A stretch of 64,000 nt of DNA. It comes from Cellvibrionaceae bacterium (GTDB lineage: Bacteria > Pseudomonadota > Gammaproteobacteria > Pseudomonadales > Cellvibrionaceae). Location: contig JBOEHK010000002.1 in the NCBI GenBank assembly GCA_050633885.1, positions 853,504-917,503 of the forward strand. The letters are read 5' to 3'. Each line of letters opens with the position of its first letter. The first letter of the stretch is position 1. The translations under genes and the position numbers were made by a program. Shown here piece by piece: positions 22,008 through 39,519 of the stretch. The notes under the pieces are model-generated. The model worked only from the letters and a program-made list of their open reading frames with translations, did no database searches and was not told where the DNA came from.

Positions 22008-24374
22008 ATGGCTAGGCACTCTGTTAGTGTTGGTATTTCTATACGTTTGTTCTCCATTTTAATCTTCACAATAGCCGCAATTTTCCTGATAGGTAGCATT
22101 CAATTATTGAGTGCAGGAGGCAACCCTCTTTATTATTTTATAGCTGGAGCCTTACTGTGTTTGAGCGCCGTTTTATTATGGCTGGGCAAGCCTGAGGGTT
22201 CTTGGGTTTATGGTCTGGTTATTATTATTTCTTTACTGTGGGGCATTGTAACTGTGGGCATCAACCCTTGGGGTCTTTTACCGTGGTTTGTTGCTTATGC
22301 AGTACTCGGTCTCTGGTTGTTAATGCCATGGGTTAGGCGATCACTTTATCAAGGTAACCCACCATCATTATTTAAAAACCCTGTTACAAAAATTATTTCT
22401 TTTGTAGGGGTTATTACTGTTGGAATTGTTTTTTTTGTGGGTACACAATTTAGCGTTGATGAGTTAGTAGGCAACCGTTCTGCTAACCATAATGCAAATA
22501 CACAAACTGATTGGCCCAGCTATGGCAACAGTGCTGCAGGGACACGTTATTCTCCCGTCGACGACATTAATATCGACAATGTTGATCAACTTGAAGAAGT
22601 ATGGCGATTTAGAACAAAAGTGGGCGGGGTTGCAAAAGGAACGCCAACTCAAATGGGTGATCTTTTATATTCTTGTCATGGCGGCAATATAATTATTGCG
22701 CAAGATGCAGAATCAGGAAAAGAAGTTTGGAGACACGATCCTAACGTTGATGAATCAACCACAACACGATTACGTTACTTCACAACCACTTGCCGCGGCG
22801 TTTCTTATTACGAAGCACCAGCCGATTATAGTGGCGAATGCAAAACGCGCTTACTAACAGGTACAGCGGATGCGAGATTAATTGCTGTTGATGCACTCAC
22901 TGGAAAAAGTTGTCAAAACTTTGGTAACAATGGATCCGTTAATTTATTAAAAGATTTAGGCGAAGTGAAAGATTTATTTTATTTCGTCACATCACCTCCT
23001 GCGATTGTCAAAGGAAACGCAGTGCTCGGTGGATGGGTGATGGACAATAGAGAAATAAAAGAACCATCAGGGGTTGTACGAGCGTTCGATGCAATTACGG
23101 GCGAGTTTTCTTGGGCATGGGACATGGGGCGGCCTGGTGTTAACACCGAACCAAAAGAAGATGAAATATATACGCGCGGCTCTCCCAACGTGTGGAGTTT
23201 ATTTAGTGTCGATGAAGAGCGTGGCATGGTTTTCGCACCAACAGGGAATGAAACGCCTGATTACTTTGGCGCATTACGAAACCCTTCTTCAGAAAAATTT
23301 TCTAGCTCAGTCGTTGCACTGGATGGCGAAACCGGACATTTAATTTGGTCATTCCAAACGGTTCATCATGACATTTGGGATTACGATGTGCCTTCACAGC
23401 CGACATTAATAGATGTTCCCGATGAGAATGGACAATTAATTCCTGCCGTTCTTCAAGCAACAAAGCGCGGGGAAATTTTCATGTTAAATAGATTAACCGG
23501 CGAGCCGATTGCCGAAGTGGTAGAGAAAGCAGTATCACAAGATTCCGTTCCAGAAGAATGGACATCGCCTACGCAACCTTTTTCAGTGGGCTTACCCAAT
23601 TTCCGTGAACCAGAATTAACCGAAAATGATATGTGGGGTATTACGCCGCTTGATCAATTGTGGTGTCGAATTGAATTTAAAAAAATGCGCTACGAAGGAC
23701 ATTTTACTCCACCAACAACCGAATTTACTTTGCAATATCCGGGTAACGCTGGCGGTTTTAATTGGGGAAGTATTTCAGTCGATGAAGAAAAACATTTATT
23801 AATTGCAAACCCGATGATCATGGCGAATCGAACGCGATTGATTCCTAGAGCAGAAATGGATGCGGGCGCAAGAGGCTCGCAGCAAGCGGGAACGCCTTAC
23901 GGTTTTACAACGCAAGCTTTTTTATCGCCAATTGGCGTACCTTGCCAAAAACCACCTTACAGCGTATTGGCCGTTATAGATTTACAAACGAAAAAATTAT
24001 TATGGAAGCGTCCACTCGGAACAACAAATAAAATGGGACCTTTTGGCATCCCCGTTAAAATCCCTTTAACAATGGGTATTCCTTTAAGCGGCGGTACAGT
24101 TACTACGAGGGGCGGATTAATTTTTGTGGCAGGAACGATGGATGGGTTTATCAGGGCGTTCGACGTGAGAAATGGTGAAGAAGTTTGGCGCCGCACATTG
24201 CCACAAACCGCTCAGTCCACACCGATGAGTTATCTCTCGCCGAAAACTAAACAGCAAATGATTGTTGTCGTTGTTCCTGCGTTTGGTCGAGACTATGGTG
24301 GCGCTAGAGCGGAAACACCAGAAGATGAAGATCCAGAAGGTGGTTATATTATTGCTTACCGTTTAAAAAAATGA
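22008..24374 (+). CDS. gcd: membrane-bound PQQ-dependent dehydrogenase, glucose/quinate/shikimate family
   Basis: Five N-terminal TM helices followed by a PQQ propeller (VHHDIWDYDVPSQPTL). About 790 aa from ATG 22008; the track starts at TTG 21963. Confidence 0.85.
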   Translation: MARHSVSVGISIRLFSILIFTIAAIFLIGSIQLLSAGGNPLYYFIAGALLCLSAVLLWLGKPEGSWVYGLVIIISLLWGIVTVGINPWGLLPWFVAYAVLGLWLLMPWVRRSLYQGNPPSLFKNPVTKIISFVGVITVGIVFFVGTQFSVDELVGNRSANHNANTQTDWPSYGNSAAGTRYSPVDDINIDNVDQLEEVWRFRTKVGGVAKGTPTQMGDLLYSCHGGNIIIAQDAESGKEVWRHDPNVDESTTTRLRYFTTTCRGVSYYEAPADYSGECKTRLLTGTADARLIAVDALTGKSCQNFGNNGSVNLLKDLGEVKDLFYFVTSPPAIVKGNAVLGGWVMDNREIKEPSGVVRAFDAITGEFSWAWDMGRPGVNTEPKEDEIYTRGSPNVWSLFSVDEERGMVFAPTGNETPDYFGALRNPSSEKFSSSVVALDGETGHLIWSFQTVHHDIWDYDVPSQPTLIDVPDENGQLIPAVLQATKRGEIFMLNRLTGEPIAEVVEKAVSQDSVPEEWTSPTQPFSVGLPNFREPELTENDMWGITPLDQLWCRIEFKKMRYEGHFTPPTTEFTLQYPGNAGGFNWGSISVDEEKHLLIANPMIMANRTRLIPRAEMDAGARGSQQAGTPYGFTTQAFLSPIGVPCQKPPYSVLAVIDLQTKKLLWKRPLGTTNKMGPFGIPVKIPLTMGIPLSGGTVTTRGGLIFVAGTMDGFIRAFDVRNGEEVWRRTLPQTAQSTPMSYLSPKTKQQMIVVVVPAFGRDYGGARAETPEDEDPEGGYIIAYRLKK

Positions 24375-24626: not shown

Positions 24627-26321
24627 ATGTTGAAAATATATTCTGGGAGTTGCTCTCACCTAATATTCAAAGTTTTTTCTTTAATAACTGTAATTAGTTT
24701 AATGAGCGTACTGTTCGTTACTAACTCATTTGCCTTTTCCAAAAAACATTATAAAGCCGACACAGTTGAAACAGAATTTGGCCCCGTGCAAGGTGTTCCA
24801 ACTTTTTATGGAACAAAATACTTGGGGCTTCCTTATGCGGCTTCTCCGGAAGGTGATTTAAGATGGCGTGCGCCAGTCGATCCAGAAATTTGGACTACTC
24901 CGCTAGTCGCAGATACATTTGGTCCGAACTGTCCACAAACGGCTTCACCATTTGGTTTGCCGAGTGTTACAGAAGATTGTTTGTCATTAAATATTTATCA
25001 ACCACGAGATTTTTATTTAAGAAAACATTCTCGCGGTTCTTTTTCTTTGTTTCGAGATGCTCGATATTCACAAAAATTTTCTAAACGATTAAAACCTGTG
25101 ATGGTTTGGATTCATGGCGGCGCTTTTCAATACGGCGAAGGGCAAGATTGGGACCCCGCAAAATTAGTTAAGCAGGGTGTTGTCGTTGTAACATTAAATT
25201 ATCGATTGGGCGCACTGGGTTTTTTAGCTCATCCTGAATTATCAGAGAGCTCTCCAAATGGTGTGTCGGGTAATTACGGTATTCTCGACCAGCAAAAAGC
25301 ATTGCGTTGGGTAAAAAATAATATTGTACGTTTTGGCGGTGATCCAGATAACGTCACAATATTTGGCGAATCAGCTGGAGGTTTAAGCGTACATACGCAT
25401 TTAGTTTCCCCAGAATCAGAAAGTTTATTTCATCGTGCGATTATTCAAAGTGGCGCTTACGCATTAGCGCCGCCGGAGTTGTCAACGTGGGAATTTTTAG
25501 GCACTGGCATTGCAGCGAACATGGGTTGCTCAGAACAAGTCACTGATGATGTTGCTGATTGTTTAAGACATTTATCGGTTGAAGACATTTTAAATGGACA
25601 AGATCCAGGAGCAGTGGGTTATTTACCCAATGTAGATGGACTTACATTGCCCATGACAATAATTGGAGCATTGCAAACCGGACAGTTTCATCGTGTACCT
25701 GTTATTCAAGGGAGTAATAATGATGAATACACGTTGTTTACTTCGTTGTTATTTGAGTTAGCCGGTACACCCATCACAGAGGCATTTTATCCAACCGCAA
25801 TCAATATTGGTTTAGGAATTCCCCAAGAAGCGATTCCATTGGTAACAGCACAATATCCATTAGAAAACTATGACACACCCGCACAAGCATTATCTGCTAT
25901 CGGTACGGATGTATTATTTGCTTGCCCTGCACAAACCTCAGCGCAATTATTATCACAATATGTTCCCACTTATAGTTATGAATTTAACGATAAAAACGCG
26001 CCACAAATTTATTTGCCCTCGGTCAGTTTTCCCTACGGCGCTTATCATGTAGCGGAAGTTCAATATTTAATGGAGCCTAAAAATCCATTCCCTATGGAAC
26101 CGTTAAATAGAAAGCAGCGACGGCTATCGAGGCAGATGGTTAATTACTGGACGAGCTTTGCTCGCTTTGGTTTACCGTTGCATCATGCAGCGCCTTTCTG
26201 GAACTCGTACGATGTGAATTCACAAACCGTACAATCCTTGCAACCACCGCGTATAAATTCCACCAGCGATTTTAATCTTCGCCACAAATGTGATTTTTGG
26301 GCTGGCTTAATGACTCAATAA
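24627..26321 (+). CDS. carboxylesterase/lipase type B family, secreted
   Basis: Signal peptide, WIHGGAF oxyanion region, FGESAGG nucleophile elbow. Confidence 0.9.
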   Translation: MLKIYSGSCSHLIFKVFSLITVISLMSVLFVTNSFAFSKKHYKADTVETEFGPVQGVPTFYGTKYLGLPYAASPEGDLRWRAPVDPEIWTTPLVADTFGPNCPQTASPFGLPSVTEDCLSLNIYQPRDFYLRKHSRGSFSLFRDARYSQKFSKRLKPVMVWIHGGAFQYGEGQDWDPAKLVKQGVVVVTLNYRLGALGFLAHPELSESSPNGVSGNYGILDQQKALRWVKNNIVRFGGDPDNVTIFGESAGGLSVHTHLVSPESESLFHRAIIQSGAYALAPPELSTWEFLGTGIAANMGCSEQVTDDVADCLRHLSVEDILNGQDPGAVGYLPNVDGLTLPMTIIGALQTGQFHRVPVIQGSNNDEYTLFTSLLFELAGTPITEAFYPTAINIGLGIPQEAIPLVTAQYPLENYDTPAQALSAIGTDVLFACPAQTSAQLLSQYVPTYSYEFNDKNAPQIYLPSVSFPYGAYHVAEVQYLMEPKNPFPMEPLNRKQRRLSRQMVNYWTSFARFGLPLHHAAPFWNSYDVNSQTVQSLQPPRINSTSDFNLRHKCDFWAGLMTQ

Positions 26322-26385
26322 CATTGGCCAATACCACTGACTTCAACAAATTGCCAAACTTTTTTAGGTGCATCCATTCGCTGTA
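26273..26385 (+). repeat. 113-bp direct repeat, left copy (last 49 nt of esterase gene plus 64 nt downstream)
   Basis: Matches 30566..30678 with 3 mismatches by my count. Weaker similarity continues for about 25 nt. Confidence 0.95.
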
Positions 26386-26633
26386 ACACAATGCATTCTA
26401 GGGGAAATGTGTTTACAAATTTTATAGCAGGCAATGTTTTAATGCTGGTGATATTAAAACTATTATTATTTGCGAAAATTATTTGCCCGTATTTGTTAAT
26501 CAAGACTCGATTCTCCGTCTTCGACTAATTCTTGATAGCAATAAATGTAGCTTGTGACACTCCATTACTTTGCAGACTTTCGACACATAATCCAGCGCCT
26601 TATTAACGCTTTATCAAACTAATCATAACCACT

Positions 26634-27107
26634 TCAATCATCACCATCACTTGATGACGAACTATCGTCAGACTCATCGCTGTATTTTCTATCAATGAAG
26701 GTTGAGTCTGAATAATTTCCTGTATCGTCATGAGTAACAAGTGCTTGATCCGCGGCTAATTCATACATCTGAGCTCTGTCTTCCTCGATTGATTCAAATA
26801 AGTCAAGGGTTGTAAAAGATTGATATTCTTCCCTAAAGCAAATATTAGAGACTTCATTGCGAAGAGATACGTAATTGAATGTTGTGTTTTTTTTCTTGCA
26901 GTATTCTTTAAACGATATTTTGTTGGTATAAATCGCCATAGCGTATTCTTTGTATTTGTCACTTAATTGATAGGTTTCGAAAAGGTTATTCATTTCGTCA
27001 AGTGTGTAAGCATCACGAATACCAAACTCTTTATCGAGGTAAAAGGGCAGTGTTCTTGCGTAGAATTTTATTGCGTTTTTTCTTCTATACCTTTCGAGCC
27101 ATTTCAT
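26634..27107 (-). CDS. hypothetical protein with strongly acidic Ser/Asp C-terminal tail
   Basis: 157-aa ORF, MKWLERYRRKNAIKFYARTLPFYLDKEF... ending DESDDSSSSSDGDD. No catalytic motif recognised. Confidence 0.5.
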   Translation of the reverse strand: MKWLERYRRKNAIKFYARTLPFYLDKEFGIRDAYTLDEMNNLFETYQLSDKYKEYAMAIYTNKISFKEYCKKKNTTFNYVSLRNEVSNICFREEYQSFTTLDLFESIEEDRAQMYELAADQALVTHDDTGNYSDSTFIDRKYSDESDDSSSSSDGDD

Positions 27108-27457
27108 AATAGCGTCCTCTTGGGTCGATTTTTGATTTGCTTTTATCCAAGCTCATTATTGATTTATAAGTAACCTATTCATAGTCTGAAATACGCGTAC
27201 GTTACTGAATTGCAGACTTTTCGTTACTAACTCAAACCTATCTTTATGGATTGAAAAACAGACTGCAATGATTTTGAGAAAATATTTAAGTTATTGATTT
27301 GTATGTAATAAATATTACGATCAATCACTTGTTCGTAGCGAGGTGGCGCGAAATTCATCGTATTTCTTTTTGGGGAATGTCGTTAAAATCAAGTAAGCTA
27401 GCTTACGTTTAAAGAGCTGTTGATGGCTGAAAACGATTGGATCAAAGAGGAGTTTTT

Positions 27458-29122
27458 ATGCTGCCCGATTTAATGAATGGAAATGATGTTTTTAAAAGCG
27501 GTATACGAGCAGTCAATCACAACGAGGACCTGTCCCCTTTAAAAACATGGCTGCAACAACGAATTTCGACGACAGGCAGAGAAACGCTTCCTGCGTGGGC
27601 TGAAGTGTTGACGGCTATATTAACCTTGATAGAAGTACGCCTAGAAGAAAAAGAAAACCCAACGCTCTTTTTTGAAACGCACATCATTGCTCGACAAGTT
27701 CGGCGTCAGCGAAATGACGAAAAAATTCAAACGCGATTTGTAACCGATGAAATGGGACGTTTGAATAAACACCTTAGCGATTACATTGAATCGTCTTCCA
27801 CATTGACAGAAGGTAGTAATACATCGGTTGTCGTAATTGGTTGGTGTCTCGATAACGATAAACGAGGAATCGGGGTGGGAGTGACCGACTCTCGAACAGC
27901 GGCAATGCTTTTTTCTGGTGATCTAGATAGACCTATTCTCGGGCTACATATTAGTCGTTTGAAAAAGTTTACAAATTCTTTAACGCAAGGAATGGCCAAT
28001 TCAACATTATCCTTATTACTAATCACTGTTATCTTAATGCTTGGCACATATATTTTTCAAACTCATTGGAAAAAATCAAGCGGAGTGATTGAAAATATTC
28101 TACAAGAAAAATATTTGCGATGCGGTGTAGATGGGTCGCTGCGCCACTTCTCGATGTTTAATGATGCCGAGCAAACATGGTGGGGCATTGATGTTGAAAT
28201 GTGTAAGGCAATTGCGACGGGAATAGGTGTTAAGCCCTATTTCTATAAAGTAGATAATTCCCGATTTGATCTTCGGCTAGAAACAATAGAAAAGAGAGAC
28301 CTGCATATCTTATTTAGAAACACATCGCATACGGTGACTAGAGATTTAAAAGAAGGATTTTATTTTGGACCTTATTACTTTTACGAGCGGGAATATTTTT
28401 TGGATTTAGTTGGTCCGAAGAGTAATAAGCCGGTTACGGATAAAGAGCTTTTTGGAAAACGTGTTTGTGTGAAGCCGGGCAGTTCAAATGAAGCAACATT
28501 AAAAAGTATTGCTGACGGTATTGAGTTGAAGTTGATTGTGAAGGGGGTTGATGGTCGGGAATTTAATAATAATTTTCAGCTGTTGAAGCTGCTGAGAGAA
28601 TCAGCAGAACCTATCTGCGATTATGTATTTGGCAATTATTATGTACTTAAGCAGTTAAACAGTGATCAGCAAGTTCGTAATAATTTTTCTTTTCCTATGC
28701 GTTCCTATACGAATTCACGACTTGATCCACTGGCAGCGGTATTACCTAGAGATGAAGCTTGGCGTGAGGTTGTTAGCTATATTATTTATGTGCTGATACA
28801 AGCAGATGAGATGAATATTAATTCATATAATGTTGATCATATTAAAGTGAATGGCAGTAAACGGCAAAAAGATTTTTTGAAAGGTATTGGAATGCAATCT
28901 TTAAATTTGCCTGAAAATTGGGTTTACAATTTGCTATCAACATCTGGCAGCTACGATGAAATTTATTATCGATCTTTTGCGTGCGATTATGCTGATTGTC
29001 CTAAGCCTGCCCAGAGTGATTGGGATCAAAAGCTTCGACAATTAAACAACCAGCGCTGGCCGAACTACGCCTTTGATGAAAGCGATGATAAACCTGGCTT
29101 GTTATTTACGCCGACTTTTTAG
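27458..29122 (+). CDS. membrane-anchored protein: unknown ~190-aa cytoplasmic domain, one TM helix, AapJ/BztA-like type-3 periplasmic solute-binding domain
   Basis: ATG 27458 behind aagaggag. TM LSLLLITVILMLGTYIF. The C-terminal 350 aa are collinear with my recollection of general L-amino-acid SBPs (LRCGVDG..W.GIDVEMCKAIA...RNTSHTVTRD...DPLAAVLPRDEAWREVVSYIIYVLIQADEMNINSYNVD...WVYNLLSTSGSYDEIY...GLLFTPTF). Confidence 0.65.
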   Translation: MLPDLMNGNDVFKSGIRAVNHNEDLSPLKTWLQQRISTTGRETLPAWAEVLTAILTLIEVRLEEKENPTLFFETHIIARQVRRQRNDEKIQTRFVTDEMGRLNKHLSDYIESSSTLTEGSNTSVVVIGWCLDNDKRGIGVGVTDSRTAAMLFSGDLDRPILGLHISRLKKFTNSLTQGMANSTLSLLLITVILMLGTYIFQTHWKKSSGVIENILQEKYLRCGVDGSLRHFSMFNDAEQTWWGIDVEMCKAIATGIGVKPYFYKVDNSRFDLRLETIEKRDLHILFRNTSHTVTRDLKEGFYFGPYYFYEREYFLDLVGPKSNKPVTDKELFGKRVCVKPGSSNEATLKSIADGIELKLIVKGVDGREFNNNFQLLKLLRESAEPICDYVFGNYYVLKQLNSDQQVRNNFSFPMRSYTNSRLDPLAAVLPRDEAWREVVSYIIYVLIQADEMNINSYNVDHIKVNGSKRQKDFLKGIGMQSLNLPENWVYNLLSTSGSYDEIYYRSFACDYADCPKPAQSDWDQKLRQLNNQRWPNYAFDESDDKPGLLFTPTF

Positions 29123-29505
29123 TATGTGTCGACAAATGACGATCACAGAAAGTAGAAATGCAAAAAACGCCGAATAGAAAATCGTTCGAATTTTATACCT
29201 TGATCGTAAATATCTCGTCATCATGTTGTTACGAAAAATAATATATTGATCTGCAAATCAATAAGTTATGGTGAGATGTAGAATGTTTATTGTATTTTTA
29301 TTTGGTCATTAATGATGAGGTGATTTGTTACTAATTGATGTTTTCGTTGTAACGATGTGCTGTTTTAGCCTTTCGTTCTCACTGTTGAGTGGTTAATACT
29401 ATTTTTGCTCGATGAAATAAATAGTGTTTGTTGAGGTGCTGTGGCTCTAGTTTTGTTGGTGGCCATTTGCAAGTCAGTATGAGGTTTAACAACTAGGAGG
29501 TTTGC

Positions 29506-29655
29506 ATGAATAAGCTAAAGAAATACTTATTGTTACCAGTATGCTTTTTTTCAGCAACTTTATATTCTAATGAGATGGTGAATAGCAACGAGCATGCTAA
29601 CAATCTAAAAAAAATAATGTATACACTTGATGAGTTAGAAAAAAACATAGTTTGA
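29506..29655 (+). other. short ORF encoding a signal peptide, probably the displaced 5' end of the TPM-domain gene (other frame)
   Basis: aggagg RBS 5 nt upstream. MNKLKKYLLLPVCFFSATLYSNE... ends at TGA 29653-29655. It overlaps the open TPM frame across an A7 run (29639-29645). Confidence 0.5.
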
Positions 29656-30371
29656 CTGCATTTCAACTAAATTTCTTGCGTGAGTCAGAAGTATTTAAAG
29701 ATAGTGAAAAAATAGGCCTGTCAGATTATTATCTGACCATGATGGAGGGTCAAATGTATGGCGCTTATGCCAAGTTAGGTTTTCCAATATATTCGGATAA
29801 AAATAAATTTGTTCAGGACAATTCAACGGTATTATCAATCGAAGAAAAAAATACAGCTGAAAAAATAATAAGTAAATTATTGTCTGAAAAAAATATACCT
29901 ATCGTTGTAGTGACGCTGAATTCACTAGGGGAATATACCGCGAACAATGTGTCTTTATCGCAATATTCTATAGAACTTTTCAATCATTGGGGTATTGGTT
30001 CTGTTAACTATAACTATGGAATATTGTTACTGCTGACGACAGATGATGGAGCGGTGAATATCACGCTCGGTAAAGCATGGCCTGATAACTATGATGTGAT
30101 TTCACAAAATATCGTAGATAGTGTAATTGCGCCTAAAATTAATCGTAATGAAATGGCTTCTGGAATAATGGATGGACTTGCTCAACTTGAAAATATGGCG
30201 AGAGAAATACCTGTCTACCCGATGAATGTCGAATATGGCCCTAAAGGCAATATAGGTGACGCAATTACCGCTTACGTGGCTTTTATTTTTATTTTACTGG
30301 CAATTGGCTTATGCGCAAAGAAAGATGAAAAAGATAAGGAAAAACAAAAGCCTCCTGCAAGCGAAAAGTAA
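29652..30371 (+). CDS. TPM (TLP18.3/Psb32/MOLO-1) domain protein with C-terminal TM helix; lacks its own signal peptide in this frame
   Basis: FVQDNSTVLSIEEKNTAEKIISKLLSEKNIPIVVVTL...GILLLLTTDDGAVNITLG pattern typical of TPM domains. TM AYVAFIFILLAIGL. The frame is open from 29634. Confidence 0.6.
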   Translation: MTAFQLNFLRESEVFKDSEKIGLSDYYLTMMEGQMYGAYAKLGFPIYSDKNKFVQDNSTVLSIEEKNTAEKIISKLLSEKNIPIVVVTLNSLGEYTANNVSLSQYSIELFNHWGIGSVNYNYGILLLLTTDDGAVNITLGKAWPDNYDVISQNIVDSVIAPKINRNEMASGIMDGLAQLENMAREIPVYPMNVEYGPKGNIGDAITAYVAFIFILLAIGLCAKKDEKDKEKQKPPASEK

Positions 30372-30455
30372 ATAGCGATTATAATTTTAATGATCCACGG
30401 GATGCTAGCAGTACAAGTAGTGTGTGTTAGTCAGTGCATTAACTGTCTGCGGGGT

Positions 30456-30497
30456 GGTCGCGGAGATAATGGTCGCGGAAATAATAGTGGCGGTACT
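30456..30497. repeat. tandem 15-mer ggtcgcgga(g/a)ataat x2 plus partial unit
   Basis: Read directly. Lies in the in-frame extension beyond the TPM stop codon. Confidence 0.85.
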
Positions 30498-30565
30498 CTC
30501 TCCACTCGTGCCAGCTTTAGCAAAACTGACAGAGCTAACCGTCGTCGAAGGTCATTCGGTGACTT

Positions 30566-30678
30566 CCAGCGATTTTAATCTTCGCCACAAGTGTGATTTT
30601 TGGGCTGGCTTAATGACTCAATAACATTGGCCAGTAACACTGACTTCAACAAATTGCCAAACTTTTTTAGGTGCATCC
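30566..30678 (+). repeat. 113-bp direct repeat, right copy (orphan esterase 3' fragment)
   Basis: Encodes ...SDFNLRHKCDFWAGLMTQ*, identical to the esterase C-terminus. No upstream esterase sequence. Confidence 0.95.
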
Positions 30679-30738
30679 TTAGCGATGTGACATAATGCGT
30701 CCCAATTATTGATCACGAGAATTTAATCGGGCGAATTC

Positions 30739-30960
30739 ATGAAAGAAATCATCATTAACAAAGAGCCAGTCGAATTATTTAAGATTTTAAAGTTTGAAGG
30801 TTTAACCTCAACTGGTGGCGAAGCCAAATTATTAATTGGTGACGGGCAAGTATTGGTCAACGGAGAAGTAGAAACACGGAAAAGCAGAAAGATGGTGGCA
30901 GGCGATACCATCACATTCGCGAATGAAACATTTACACTTAAGCTTGATGAGGAAGCTTAA
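30739..30960 (+). CDS. ybcJ: S4-domain RNA-binding protein, YbcJ family
   Basis: 73 aa: LFKILKFEGLTSTGGEAKLLIGDGQVLVNGEVETRKSRKMVAGDTITF. Confidence 0.8.
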   Translation: MKEIIINKEPVELFKILKFEGLTSTGGEAKLLIGDGQVLVNGEVETRKSRKMVAGDTITFANETFTLKLDEEA

Positions 30961-36225: not shown

Positions 36226-36996
36226 ATGAGCAATATGATCAATGTTGTGGCGATATTTTTGATGAGCGTTGTACTCATTAGTGGCTGCGGCGAACAGCCA
36301 TCATCGGCGAACATTACAGATATAAATACAGATGTAAAAATAAAAAAACCAATAGATGAAAAAAAACACGGTTTTCAATCGCTAGAAGATCGATTTAGTT
36401 ATGCCTATGGTGCTGACTTGGCAGAAAAATTTAAAGCGGAAGGCATTGAATTAAATGTCGATATTCTAGCGACCGCAATGCGAGATGCATTTAAAGGCGG
36501 CGAAATGAAAATGCCTGATGACGAAGTCATCGCTACACTTGCACTTTATCAAAAAATATTTTTGAAGAAGAAAGAAGAACAAAAAGCCATCGCTGCTGAA
36601 AAAAACAAAAAAGAAGGCAAAGTATTTTTAGCTGAAAATGCCAAAAAAGAAGGCGTAGTCATCACAGAAAGTGGCTTGCAGTACAGAGTAATCACAGCCG
36701 GTGATGGCGGCTATAAACCGAAATTTAATGATGAAGTACAAGTGCATTATCGCGCAACGTTTACCGATGGCACCGAATTCGATAGCACTCACAAGCGCGG
36801 TGAGCCTTATAGCGTCAAAGCTAAAATGCTGATTGACGGTTGGGCCGAAGCGCTTCAGCTAATGACAGCAGGCGCCAAATGGGAATTAACGATACCGGCA
36901 GAACTTGCTTATGGCGAAGAAGGCCAGGATCCCTATATCGGACCAAATGCCGTACTGATTTTTGAAGTGGAATTGCTTGAAATTGAAGAGGGATAA
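36226..36996 (+). CDS. fkpA: FKBP-type peptidyl-prolyl isomerase, FkpA/Mip-like lipoprotein
   Basis: Lipobox LISGCG, dimerisation-helix region, FKBP domain GLQYRVITAGDG...[15 protein letters not shown]...[26 protein letters not shown]. Confidence 0.9.
   Translation: MSNMINVVAIFLMSVVLISGCGEQPSSANITDINTDVKIKKPIDEKKHGFQSLEDRFSYAYGADLAEKFKAEGIELNVDILATAMRDAFKGGEMKMPDDEVIATLALYQKIFLKKKEEQKAIAAEKNKKEGKVFLAENAKKEGVVITESGLQYRVITAGDGGYKPKFNDEVQVHYRATFTDGTEFDSTHKRGEPYSVKAKMLIDGWAEALQLMTAGAKWELTIPAELAYGEEGQDPYIGPNAVLIFEVELLEIEEG
36755..36983 (+). repeat. 229-bp direct repeat, left copy (3' end of intact fkpA)
   Basis: Collinear with 39520..39748 at a constant offset of 2765 nt. I count 8 mismatches, all at third codon positions. 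Confidence 0.95.
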
Positions 36997-37255
36997 AAAG
37001 CCGTCACAATAAGTTCACAATTATCGGGTGATACCATTATATTTTCTGGTTTAATTTAGAGGCCTAAATTTAGAAGTTTAGAAGTTTAAGTTTGGTGCGA
37101 TGAGTAGATTTGATTTAGCTGTTTTTTACTAATTAAAAACGGAGTATAAAAATTGTATTCTCGGCGAAAACTCTTTGTCGCTAGGTGCAAGTTCTTCGCT
37201 TTAAACTCTTCAACGCAAACTCTTCAACTCAAATTTTTCTTTGCAAGAAGCATAA

Positions 37256-38524
37256 TCATTCCTCGACAGAAAACGGATTTAAAAATTGCCGCTTCCAAAG
37301 CAACTGTCGATCAACTTCATTTAATTCCGCTTCATCACAAACCGATTGCCAGTTTTTCTCAATAATAATTTTTTGATGTTCAAAAATCGCATAGGCTTCA
37401 TCTTTCTTGAGTAAAAAATTTTTCGCAGCAGATAAACATGTTTTGAACTGGCTTAAATTATTTTCGCCAATAATCCGCATAGCTTGACCAGCCTCATTGC
37501 CCAAGCGTCCTTGAGGGCAGATATCATAGGCGGGAGTTAAACTTAAATGTTTTCCATCCCAAAACGCCGCATGGTTTCGGGCATGATCGTCAGTATTGCC
37601 ACATAAAATATTGAACAATAATCGCGAGAACAATTCTTTGAGTGTATCTTTAGGTTCAATAAATCGATGGCGAATAATTTCAGCTAATGTTTCATAACTG
37701 GCGTAGCGCGCCATCATGTCATCTAACCCAAATAAGGTGAGGGCAGAGACCATGGGTTGCCGCGTCCAGTCTTTGCCATTAAATTTCCTATCGAAACGCT
37801 CAATGAGCACAATATCTTTATTGGCTGCTTTCACCATTTTCACTGGCGCAACATTAATGCCGGCCAGTTTTGCCAAGCGCATAGCGATAAATTCCGCTTT
37901 CACCACGCTGTACAAATCATTCGTAGCAGAAAATTTAGCAATATATTTTGTGTCTTTTTCTTCGATTAACGCCTTAGGGCGTGCTCCGCCAATCGAGCTA
38001 CCATGAAAGAGCGCCTGATCTAATTCTGGCCGGAGAGGTATACCTTTCTCAACGCGCTCCGCTGATTGCATCAATTCTTCAATACTGACATTTTTTGCGA
38101 AGCGTGGAATATATTCAGTGGGAGATTGCTGAAAGTCCAAAGCACCAATCCGATCAGAGCCGGACTCTAAAAGGTAGGTCAGTTCATCAAGTGTAGCCGT
38201 ATCGGTATTCGCACCTTTTAAACCGAGTTTTTTATTAATAATCACTCGGCGCCCCCAAGCATCAGGAGCGCCATCACGAATACAACCTGGTATTTTTAAT
38301 CCATTCAAATTAGAAAGCACGCCCGCTTTTAATGGCAACTCAGGTTCGTAGATAGACATAGCTGGCGGAGTATCTTTAATACGCTCCAAATAACTTTTAC
38401 CGTAGTTAAATAAAAGCGCATCGCCATCGGCTTCAAGTTTTCCTGCGACCACAGGTTTTATTTCATTAGGTAGCCAGATCCAGACATAGCTTTCTTTGTA
38501 TTGGTTGTTAGAAGTCATCGTCAA
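37256..38524 (-). CDS. hipA: HipA-family serine/threonine kinase toxin (type II TA)
   Basis: About 420 aa. HGSSIGGARPKA (P-loop-like), CGNTDDHARNHA catalytic loop. 17-nt overlap with the upstream HTH gene. Confidence 0.85.
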   Translation of the reverse strand: MTMTSNNQYKESYVWIWLPNEIKPVVAGKLEADGDALLFNYGKSYLERIKDTPPAMSIYEPELPLKAGVLSNLNGLKIPGCIRDGAPDAWGRRVIINKKLGLKGANTDTATLDELTYLLESGSDRIGALDFQQSPTEYIPRFAKNVSIEELMQSAERVEKGIPLRPELDQALFHGSSIGGARPKALIEEKDTKYIAKFSATNDLYSVVKAEFIAMRLAKLAGINVAPVKMVKAANKDIVLIERFDRKFNGKDWTRQPMVSALTLFGLDDMMARYASYETLAEIIRHRFIEPKDTLKELFSRLLFNILCGNTDDHARNHAAFWDGKHLSLTPAYDICPQGRLGNEAGQAMRIIGENNLSQFKTCLSAAKNFLLKKDEAYAIFEHQKIIIEKNWQSVCDEAELNEVDRQLLWKRQFLNPFSVEE

Positions 38525-38852
38525 CTACCTTCATTTTTTTACGGGCTTTTTGAGGAAGTAGAGCGAGCTTCTCTTCGGTTTCTTTAATGTGTCTCGCCAA
38601 CGTCAATGAAGATGGATCAGCATCGAAAAGATTCACCCCGACAATAGCCGCCACTTCGAACACAGCTCCGATCTCACATTTCAAATCGCCTTTTTCAATA
38701 CGCTGAAGCATACTTCTAGAAATTCCAACTCGTTCAGCTACCTCTTGAGCGCTTAACCGACGCTCTAATCTGGCGGCACGAATGAGCCCCGAGAGAAGCG
38801 TGATCGCTTCTTCGGTATAACGTGAATATGAACGTGTCACTGATTTTGGCAT
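38508..38852 (-). CDS. hipB: XRE-family HTH antitoxin (HipB-like)
   Basis: LSAQEVAERVGISRSMLQRIEKG helix-turn-helix. Lies upstream of hipA and overlaps it. Confidence 0.8.
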   Translation of the reverse strand: MPKSVTRSYSRYTEEAITLLSGLIRAARLERRLSAQEVAERVGISRSMLQRIEKGDLKCEIGAVFEVAAIVGVNLFDADPSSLTLARHIKETEEKLALLPQKARKKMKVVDDDF

Positions 38853-38872
38853 TTTGTCTTACATATAAGTCA

Positions 38873-38993
38873 ATAAACCGCCAATCGGTTTATATGTGAA
38901 CCATATACTAGATCATGGTTGAAAAGCGATCAAGCTATAAATGGTTCATAAAAGACCCATTAAGCTATCTATTGGTTTATATGTAACCCATAT
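38873..38993. promoter_or_regulatory. candidate hipBA operator region: inverted repeat ataaaccg-N5-cggtttat and 20-nt direct repeat ggtttatatgt(g/a)a(a/c)ccatat
   Basis: Inverted repeat at 38873-38893. Direct repeats at 38887-38906 and 38974-38993, read directly. Confidence 0.35.
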
Positions 38994-39058
38994 TGATTGT
39001 TTCAACAAAGGAGCCGAAGTTATGAAGTTGTTGATTGGTGGGCCACTAGCTAGTACTA

Positions 39059-39436
39059 ATGAGCGGTGAATTAAATACGATGGACGATCAGATACGTGAA
39101 GATATATTGAATGAAGCTGCAAGAAATTATTATAACGACAAAAATTTGGTTGAAAGATTAAGGCGGCGAGTTAAAAGAAAATTTGGATCACTCGTCGATA
39201 AATCAGAAATCAATGACACAATTATTCTTTCAAAAAACATCTATGAAAGTGTGAAAGCACTTTTGCCTAATTTTACAGAAAGTAATAAAACAGCCTTCGC
39301 TGATCCACAAGACATTAATTATGATTTCCTCGCCAAAGCAGTACACGAAAAATCTCTTTCAAATAAAAATCAGTTTAATCTCGATGATATTCATCAAGTA
39401 GTGAATTGGGTCATTTATTGGGAGTATCTTAGGTGA
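39059..39436 (+). CDS. hypothetical protein
   Basis: 125-aa ORF divergent from hipB. No motif recognised. Confidence 0.4.
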   Translation: MSGELNTMDDQIREDILNEAARNYYNDKNLVERLRRRVKRKFGSLVDKSEINDTIILSKNIYESVKALLPNFTESNKTAFADPQDINYDFLAKAVHEKSLSNKNQFNLDDIHQVVNWVIYWEYLR

Positions 39437-39487
39437 TTTATTTTCCCGAGTTTAATAATTTATTTGAGGCTGTAAATTTAGGGGGGG

Positions 39488-39519
39488 TAGACTTGAATCA
39501 AGTTTCTCTGACCCCTTGA
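39488..39519 (+). repeat. 32-nt direct repeat copy A (taga.. gaatcaagtttctctgaccc ..ttga), preceded by a G7 run
   Basis: Exact 20-nt core shared with 42567..42586. Abuts the fkpA' homology boundary. Confidence 0.85.

Follow-up and report, generated by a model that had tools for sequence, protein, structure and literature searches.

A recombinase-free three-gene islet between direct repeats of a carboxylesterase gene end in a Cellvibrionaceae bacterium, and a closed contig with its candidate reciprocal junction

Introduction

Several described systems resemble the 4.2-kb islet that lies between a carboxylesterase gene and a ybcJ-like gene in a stretch of 64,000 nt from a Cellvibrionaceae bacterium (GenBank assembly GCA_050633885.1, contig JBOEHK010000002.1, positions 853,504 to 917,503 of the forward strand). 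The whole stretch is called the window here, and positions are given in its coordinates. The cryptic prophage e14 and phage 21 insert at the Escherichia coli icd gene (icd/icdC); these are prophages of 15-40 kb that carry their own integrase next to the att site. The cis-mobilizable elements (CIMEs) derived from the integrative and conjugative elements (ICEs) of Streptococcus thermophilus are att-flanked islands without recombination or transfer genes, and they are excised as circles when the cognate integrase is provided in trans. For restriction-modification gene units, Nobusato et al. in 2000 (Gene 259:99) reportedly described an "insertion with long target duplication". Furuta, Abe and Kobayashi 2010 (NAR 38:2428, PMC2853133) recognized such insertions by an insert of <20 kb, a repeat of >30 bp that aligns to a single-copy target in a related genome without the insert and the lack of a mobility gene; the restriction-modification cargo was a search criterion in that study, not a mechanistic requirement. 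They also put forward a cycle in which such units insert, are amplified by way of their repeats and are released again, with no experimental evidence for the release.

Small islets that lack a recombinase and lie between long gene-end duplications recur in genome comparisons, and the route by which they enter and leave has never been shown. The locus described here adds what would be both states of such a cycle as sequences: an integrated copy on a 920-kb contig, and a 4,303-bp closed circle with the exact reciprocal junction, from a related community. With little better than even confidence, we propose that positions 26376-30565 are a horizontally acquired three-gene islet that encodes no recombinase and alternates between an integrated and a 4,303-bp circular (or tandemly amplified) form. 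The islet probably still moves.

Judged from its sequence, the architecture matches an insertion with long target duplication together with an end replacement of the e14/icd type. Like the long target duplications, the locus has an insert of ~4.2 kb without integrase or transposase, a repeat of 113 nt (~136 nt with its tail) and a target that is single-copy in relatives; its repeat overlaps a gene 3' end, as is often the case in that class, and the G+C content of the insert differs from the genome average. It is unlike them in that the cargo is not a restriction-modification system, so that no self-made double-strand break can be invoked, in that one repeat copy has a diverged tail and looks element-borne rather than purely duplicated from the recipient, and in that a closed circular form was recovered. 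With e14 and phage 21 the islet shares insertion into the 3' end of a protein gene, a near-identical end copy of its own that keeps the gene intact while the displaced fragment lies on the far side, and differences that are synonymous in the coding part. In contrast to those prophages it is 4.2 kb long, has no recombinase at either end and has its apparent crossover around the stop codon, so that most of the functional coding end would be host-derived. Like a CIME, it has att-type direct repeats and no recombination or transfer genes. However, a CIME shares its att site with a cognate ICE, whereas the 113-nt sequence has no third copy in this genome (a cognate element could lie outside it), and two islets with unrelated repeats occur here.

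Results and Discussion

A direct repeat of the esterase 3' end flanks the islet

A repeat search located a 113-nt direct repeat with one copy at 26263-26375 and the other at 30566-30678, identical at 110 of 113 positions (97%) and spaced 4303 nt apart. The repeat comprises the final 59 nt of the esterase gene, stop codon included, and 54 nt of the following spacer; it is not a chance similarity. An initial annotation, made from the letters of the window alone, had the right copy in its proper place but set the left copy 10 nt too high, at 26273-26385, and it divided the repeat into 49 nt of gene and 64 nt downstream, a split that the stop codon at 26319-26321 corrects to 59 and 54. Its count of three mismatches, only one of them coding and that one synonymous, holds when the sequence is read. 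The three single-nucleotide differences are at 26288/30591 (SNP1, A/G, a synonymous AAA/AAG change in a lysine codon), 26331/30634 (SNP2, A/G) and 26334/30637 (SNP3, C/A). Between SNP1 and SNP2 lies a block of 42 nt (26289-26330, forward strand) that is the same in both copies and contains the esterase stop; this block is the putative crossover interval.

The left copy (26263-26375, forward strand) is attL-like. It has the ancestral-type AAA at SNP1 and, at 26331 and 26334, the alleles of a circular contig described below. The right copy (30566-30678, forward strand) is attR-like; it has a derived G at 30591 and begins with a sharp left edge at a displaced esterase 3' fragment of 20 codons (30566-30624). 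Weaker homology continues for ~23 nt past the repeat, with 15 of 21 ungapped positions identical between 26376-26398 and 30679-30702 (binomial p = 1e-4), much as the initial annotation had described it over about 25 nt. This tail is more diverged than the 113-nt block, with mismatches at 6/21 against 3/113 positions (Fisher p = 5e-4), a heterogeneity that makes a strict duplication of the recipient's own target less likely. The left tail (26376-26398, forward strand) matches the right tail at 15/21 positions and the outgroup spacer at 14/21, and we read it, on the strength of these comparisons, as the putative element-borne end of the homology. The right tail (30679-30702, forward strand) is of host type, being identical to the spacer of the sister species at 18/21 positions. 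Further homology past 26398 was considered as well, as the left end of the islet resembled by eye the spacer upstream of ybcJ in the sister genome G001; it was rejected when local alignment scored no better than shuffled sequences (z ~0).

A self-BLAST of the whole 3.68-Mb assembly and a scan with exact 22-mers found no third copy of the repeat. Directly after the esterase stop, at 26323-26332, comes a perfect palindrome of 10 nt, ATTGGCCAAT, which overlaps the 3' edge of the 42-nt block. It is present in the left copy and in the circular contig; the right copy reads ATTGGCCAGT, since SNP2 falls inside the palindrome. Folded as single-stranded DNA, the repeat is no more stable than its shuffles (z = 0.28) and forms neither a hairpin nor a core-like structure, and no Rfam family matches it. 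The repeat search found no inverted repeats at the ends of the islet. As to the dif-like 28-bp sites of a Xer-dependent integrative element (IMEX), an inspection of the tails by eye only showed a partial XerC-arm-like GTGACATAA but no XerD arm.

The site is empty in related lineages

In Cellvibrionaceae bacterium PBSAgamm1 (G001), a member of the same genus, the gene order is gcd, esterase, ybcJ, lif, lnt. The esterase ortholog is 86% identical to that of the window, and ybcJ follows it after 146 nt. The same empty esterase-ybcJ site is present on five contigs of a third, closely related species, drawn from a series of metagenome assemblies (GCA_041156545, -625, -665, -705 and -865). Across G001 and these five contigs the target is single-copy and the spacer measures about 150 nt. 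A multiple alignment places the empty site colinear with the left flank of the window up to the repeat and with the right flank after it, without scars. Relative to the empty site, the islet is by this alignment evidently an insertion, and the comparison that the initial annotation had recommended thus gave two sister lineages in which ybcJ directly follows the esterase.

The G+C content of 26376-30565 is 36.8%, compared with 41.0-41.6% in the flanks and 40.5% genome-wide. Together with the rarity of homologs of its genes, this composition marks the islet as what is, to all appearances, foreign and horizontally acquired cargo.

The outgroups also bear on the origin of the two repeat copies. 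At SNP1 all six outgroup sequences have AAA, as in the left copy. The right tail agrees with the outgroup at 18/21 positions and the left tail at 14/21, and the two tails share two derived states relative to the outgroup. The shared derived states suggest that the element-borne copy arose within the window's own lineage.

A closed contig carries a hybrid junction

An exact look-up of the DUF6559 protein, the product of the first islet gene, led to contig JBFPEA010010191.1 (L038; 4,324 bp) of GCA_041156705.1, a metagenome from a plastic-degrading culture. The two ends of the contig are identical over 21 nt. Joined there, they give a circle of 4,303 bp, the same length as the repeat spacing and as the islet with a single copy of the repeat. 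Relative to the window, the genes of the contig follow one another in circularly permuted order: the C-terminal part of the solute-binding protein (SBP) fusion gene, the TPM-domain gene, the repeat, the DUF6559 gene and the N-terminal part of the SBP fusion gene. The contig breaks inside the SBP gene, at a point corresponding to window position 28344 and 2 kb from the repeat, and contains no flank sequence. When rotated and aligned to window 26376-30678 it shows only four differences, at 26479 and 28453 in the islet and at 30634 and 30637 in the repeat. The two differences within the islet establish L038 as an independent sequence.

The single repeat copy of L038 is a hybrid. It has G at SNP1, as in the right copy, and A and C at SNP2 and SNP3, followed by the left tail, as in the left copy. 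Reciprocal exchange between the copies within 26289-26330 would produce just such a hybrid. On the simplest reading of these patterns, the ancestral chromosomal site (attB) would have had AAA, then G and A and the right tail, and the site on the element (attP) would have had AAG, then A and C and the left tail, exactly as in L038. The copies in the window would then be attL/attR hybrids, the left one joining host-left to element-right sequence and the right one joining element-left to host-right sequence. From this arrangement we infer which copy is element-borne and in which direction the event ran.

We consider it likely that the attP-type junction of L038 is real, whether it comes from a circle or from a tandem array. 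The break lies 2 kb from the repeat and no flank is attached, which is how an isolated cycle behaves and not a repeat-bounded unitig; in addition, the integrated form of a second islet, the fkpA/hipBA islet 6 kb downstream in the window, appears in this assembly as a linear contig with flanking sequence attached. The distribution of proteins is in line with this. In a 15-billion-protein collection DUF6559, TPM, HipA, HipB and ORF125, which are all the testable proteins of the islets, each occur on two contigs, one being the window's own and the other belonging to GCA_041156705.1. The three scorable backbone neighbors (ybcJ, cutinase and fkpA, at distances from 60 nt to 6 kb) are confined to the window's own contig, and the 90% cluster of ybcJ has a single member. 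The presence of the islet without its flanks in GCA_041156705.1 speaks against a single integrated copy as its sole form there, whose flanks should have assembled equally well. Exact look-ups of the backbone proteins for an attB or attR contig in the same metagenome found none, and a scan of metagenome contigs with the core pattern returned no match.

The initial annotation had held that the duplications might be coincidental if the segment were not polymorphic among relatives and further examples were lacking. The site is in fact polymorphic, and a probable circular form exists.

Searches for recombinases and mobile-element relatives

Searches of Pfam, NCBIfam, PHROGs and PADLOC found no recombinase, transposase, Rep or defense domain in the three genes or in five small open reading frames (ORFs) of the islet, every tested ORF of at least 49 aa being covered; the small ORFs have no Pfam match. 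A recombinase hidden at the level of fold was also considered and rejected, as DUF6559 has no PDB match and the SBP fusion resembles amino-acid-binding proteins only. The initial annotation had reported no recombinase in the islet, and sequence and fold searches alike bear it out. Within the islet PADLOC returned nothing and PHROGs only a weak match to the SBP, which gives the islet no identity as a defense system or phage. Its DNA has no relatives among 72,556 plasmid records and none in the phage collection searched.

The islet does not classify as an integrated small plasmid (no Rep domain, and no iterons beyond one 15-mer in 2.6 copies), as a transposon or insertion sequence (no terminal inverted repeats, a duplication of 113 nt, no transposase domain) or as an integron cassette (no attC-like fold, z = 0.28, and no integrase nearby). 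The 15-mer in question, TGGTCGCGGAAATAA, forms a tandem repeat at 30455-30493 (forward strand) that ends 73 nt upstream of the right repeat and may be a protein-binding site. No other copy within 2 mismatches is present in the window, and none occurs at the other end of the islet or near the hipBA islet. A role as arm-type sites was rejected, since the motif is not found again elsewhere in the islet or at the hipBA islet.

Elsewhere, the genome encodes recombinases with nine matches to PF00589 and four to PF00239. None of them is in the window, and the nearest is ~300 kb away on the contig. The genome also contains a conjugative plasmid. Contig C17 (40,034 bp) resembles one: it encodes a VirB-type transfer set, ParAB, SSB and a serine recombinase, and between the genes of its leading region lie several direct repeats of 150-190 nt (97% identity for 24095-24284 and 28618-28807, for example) that do not duplicate gene ends. 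On contig C1, a 39.6-kb island (C1:697350-736971) is bounded by an exact 31-nt direct repeat of a tRNA 3' end (...GGTTCAAGTCC...CACCA) and has a tyrosine recombinase gene (PF00589) at 698086, ~700 nt from attL, which makes it a classical integrase island. It resembles the islet in that its direct repeats come from the 3' end of the target gene; in its size, its own recombinase and its short exact repeat it differs, and so provides a contrast from within the same genome.

A proposed route of integration and release

In the route that we propose, the circle would have ~136 nt of homology to the terminal 59 nt of the esterase gene and the spacer behind it. A single reciprocal crossover of the Campbell type between this segment and the chromosomal esterase end would place the islet between the esterase and ybcJ without damage to the esterase gene, and the homologous segment would then flank the islet as direct repeats; the reverse crossover would release the circle. 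The exchange would occur in the 42-nt identical block around the esterase stop codon, and the enzyme would be supplied from outside the islet. The nature of that enzyme, and the preference for a free circle over a tandem array, we likewise infer. Set against the cycle of Furuta et al., L038 is a candidate observation of the release step, or of amplification.

Host homologous recombination of the RecA type is somewhat more likely to perform the exchange than an unlinked site-specific recombinase; we hold the former to be possible, at rather less than even confidence, and the latter unlikely. Homologous recombination is favored by the lack of a recombinase in the islet, by the lack of a core motif common to the two islets and of any structured core, by the different lengths of the repeats of the two islets, and by the 97% block beside a 71% tail, as repeated exchange homogenizing the crossover zone would give.

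A number of points weigh against the proposal. The identity blocks (42 nt, 113 nt) are short for RecA, and at the hipBA islet the crossover apparently took place within 13 nt of the repeat edge, which is too short for RecA and would suggest a joint that is site-specific or illegitimate. The scheme does not account for how the element first captured the esterase fragment, the event that made the sharp edge at 30566. The polarity of the hybrids depends on SNP1, a single synonymous site, as SNP2 and SNP3 are not polarisable by the outgroups. The circle itself rests on one contig, and a tandem duplication (islet-repeat-islet) would yield an identical junction. The 21-nt overlap suggests assembly at k = 21, where identical blocks of 30-42 nt already form a cycle in the graph, although an isolated loop produced from the integrated form at that k would require that the flanks had been pruned. 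A non-replicating circle of low frequency should not out-assemble the host chromosome, and the integrated state in the window could conversely be a free circle that the assembler threaded into the chromosome.

Alternative explanations

The repeats might be the attL and attR sites of a CIME-like or decayed e14-type element whose lost tyrosine or serine recombinase now acts in trans, from elsewhere in the genome or from a co-resident element, the long homology serving only to rebuild the esterase 3' end. Integrase-mediated insertion into the end of a protein gene classically produces what is seen here, a duplicated 3' end that is sharp on its inner side, and a circular form. The genome has the thirteen recombinase matches listed above (nine to PF00589 and four to PF00239) and a conjugative plasmid. 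A stand-alone, well-assembled circle that is apparently abundant relative to the backbone also fits efficient enzymatic excision better than rare RecA events. The identity blocks, 42 nt at most, are short, and the hipBA crossover is seemingly at the extreme edge of the repeat, the left-copy alleles starting within 13 nt; near the right end, the 15-nt tandem motif might serve as an arm-type site. Yet that tandem motif is not repeated on the other arm, and there is no inverted-repeat core and no significant structure. Neither islet has a recombinase gene in or beside it, with ~300 kb to the nearest, and the 113-mer has no other copy in the genome, hence no cognate element that shares the att site. 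Given that the two islets have no core motif in common, two different trans-acting enzymes would be required. On this evidence we regard a recombinase in trans as an unlikely explanation.

The reading of the locus as a static scar dispenses with movement altogether: break repair would have produced a one-off insertion with long target duplication, both copies coming from the recipient's own target, the islet would be immobile, and the circular contig would be an artefact or a tandem amplification. The locus shows the insert size, the repeat length, the single-copy target and the lack of a mobility gene by which Furuta et al. 2010 (PMC2853133) recognized such insertions, and as the tails share two derived states versus the outgroup, both copies should come from the window's lineage. 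The 12-fold difference in divergence between block and tail is, however, unlike simple decay after one duplication. The ends of the contig moreover join, its break is 2 kb distant from the repeat and it includes no flank. The same assembly has the integrated hipBA islet as a linear contig with flank and lacks the backbone genes at 60 nt to 6 kb, and we therefore consider a static scar improbable. Under a still more improbable history, the genus had the islet from the start and the sister lineages lost it through a deletion between the repeats, which would make their empty sites secondary. Recombination between the repeats would indeed restore the single-copy layout of G001 and the third species, and the polarity is not strictly proven, as no deeper outgroup keeps the esterase-ybcJ synteny. 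The low G+C content and the patchy, orphan-like distributions of the genes argue otherwise, as do the sharp-edged partial esterase fragment, which arises only by insertion or duplication, and the empty-site spacer, which is colinear with the left and right flanks and free of scars. Finally, the window might be misassembled: the element would exist only as a free circle, in effect a small plasmid, with ~136 nt in common with the chromosome, and the assembler would have threaded it into the esterase-ybcJ spacer. The copies in the window are in fact the exact hybrids that pairing of attB with the attP of L038 across the 42-nt block would give. But the contig measures 920 kb in a 28-contig assembly that is 99.96% complete, with any k above 43, or with any long read, the pairing becomes unambiguous, neither a replication gene nor a plasmid relative was found, and the hipBA islet, with the same integrated layout, was recovered with flank in an independent assembly; a misassembly of this kind we find scarcely credible.

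A second islet at fkpA

A genome-wide search for long, near-identical repeat pairs on the chromosome in which a gene end is duplicated found a single other case, at the fkpA/hipBA islet. This islet has the same layout and is likewise absent from the sister species. The initial annotation had suggested that self-alignment of the genome might uncover additional duplications of gene 3' ends; self-alignment and the 22-mer scan revealed none beyond the two islets. Other nearby direct repeats were examined as candidates and rejected as gene-end duplications, being intergenic repeats in arrays of small genes, the repeats of the C17 leading region and the one normal tRNA island.

The annotation had also suggested a common insertion mechanism for the two islets. 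The shared layout leaves this plausible in the general sense of a circle that recombines with its target. The best word common to the two sets of repeats is 9 nt, which is the chance level, and a shared recombination core was rejected; the repeat lengths are 113-136 nt at the esterase islet and 232 nt at the hipBA islet. With no shared motif and different repeat lengths, a single shared site-specific recombinase is not indicated.

The hipBA islet of GCA_041156705.1 is on a linear contig with flank (L039) that corresponds to window 36686-39516 and is 100% identical to it from 36755 onward. Its first 69 nt (window 36686-36754) match the fkpA of the third species at 69/69 positions and that of the window at 67/69, fkpA being 97-98% conserved between the species over this segment. 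The start of L039 is either a true junction in the third species or a graph chimera. The right ends of two contigs of the third species from two other metagenomes (L044 and L045) fall at the same base, window 36772, 18 nt inside the fkpA repeat, which hints at a branch at this repeat in those communities. The hipBA islet may thus be integrated in the third species too, or the branching of the assemblies at this point has some other cause.

As a tentative and rather doubtful extension, both islets may be recombinase-free mobile cassettes that carry the end of a housekeeping gene, loop out through host recombination, pass between co-resident species and re-enter at homologous gene ends. If so, the release-and-reinfection cycle that Kobayashi's group proposed for restriction-modification units, and that has never been observed, would here be seen with unrelated cargo. 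The cycle would have been caught in a natural plastic-degrading consortium, with the esterase islet as a free circle and the hipBA islet joined to 69 nt that exactly match the fkpA of a different species. A cassette moved by host functions alone would be a very simple means of spreading cargo horizontally among related bacteria that share a habitat, and annotation pipelines that look for integrases would miss it.

Gene content of the islet and its flanks

The target gene (24627-26321, forward strand) encodes a carboxylesterase (PF00135, E = 1e-110) and is intact up to its stop codon. Its start codon is uncertain; the 564-aa ORF as listed is absent from the protein collection, so the start may differ. 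On the right, the backbone resumes with a gene for a ybcJ-like S4-domain RNA-binding protein (30739-30960, forward strand), which directly follows the esterase in the sister species. The islet-specific DNA between the left tail and the right repeat (26399-30565) amounts to ~4.2 kb. Its gene content is as the initial annotation described it: a 157-aa protein with an acidic tail, a membrane-tethered SBP fusion and a TPM gene. No function is assigned to this cargo.

The first gene (26634-27107, reverse strand) was identified by Pfam-type domain searches as encoding a DUF6559 protein of 157 aa with an acidic Ser/Asp tail. Its AlphaFold model (predicted local distance difference test score, pLDDT, 85.6) is an all-helical bundle that has no significant match in the PDB (best E = 2.2), and among 1.84 billion representative proteins it has no relatives above 35% identity. 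A 49-codon ORF with a signal-peptide-like product (29506-29655, forward strand) overlaps the next ORF by 4 nt (TTGA). That ORF (29652-30371, forward strand) encodes a protein of 239 aa in which a domain search found a TPM domain (PF04536), with a C-terminal transmembrane segment. Gene callers report the two as separate overlapping genes, and the overlap sequence is identical in the independent contig L038, so the split is not a sequencing error of the window's assembly.

The SBP fusion (27458-29122, forward strand; 554 aa) consists of an N-terminal cytoplasmic domain of no assigned family, one predicted transmembrane helix and an AapJ-like SBP_bac_3 domain, and its structure model matches only periplasmic amino-acid-binding proteins. 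A search of 5.8 billion sequences returned only six relatives, at ~40% identity, and 276 other genomes of the family contain one full-length homolog, at 41% identity. A conserved three-gene module was considered and rejected, as the relatives of the SBP fusion are found in unrelated neighborhoods with a different divergent partner (PF27765). Each of three such homologs of ~40% identity, at L035 6516-9686, L036 7029-9677 and L037 5715-8400, has as its partner a divergent gene for a PF27765 (UCP032817-like) membrane protein with a Cys/Gly-rich tail. Their contexts are otherwise unrelated, one being beside JetABC, and are without flanking repeats. In the window, the place of the PF27765 partner is taken by the unrelated DUF6559 gene.

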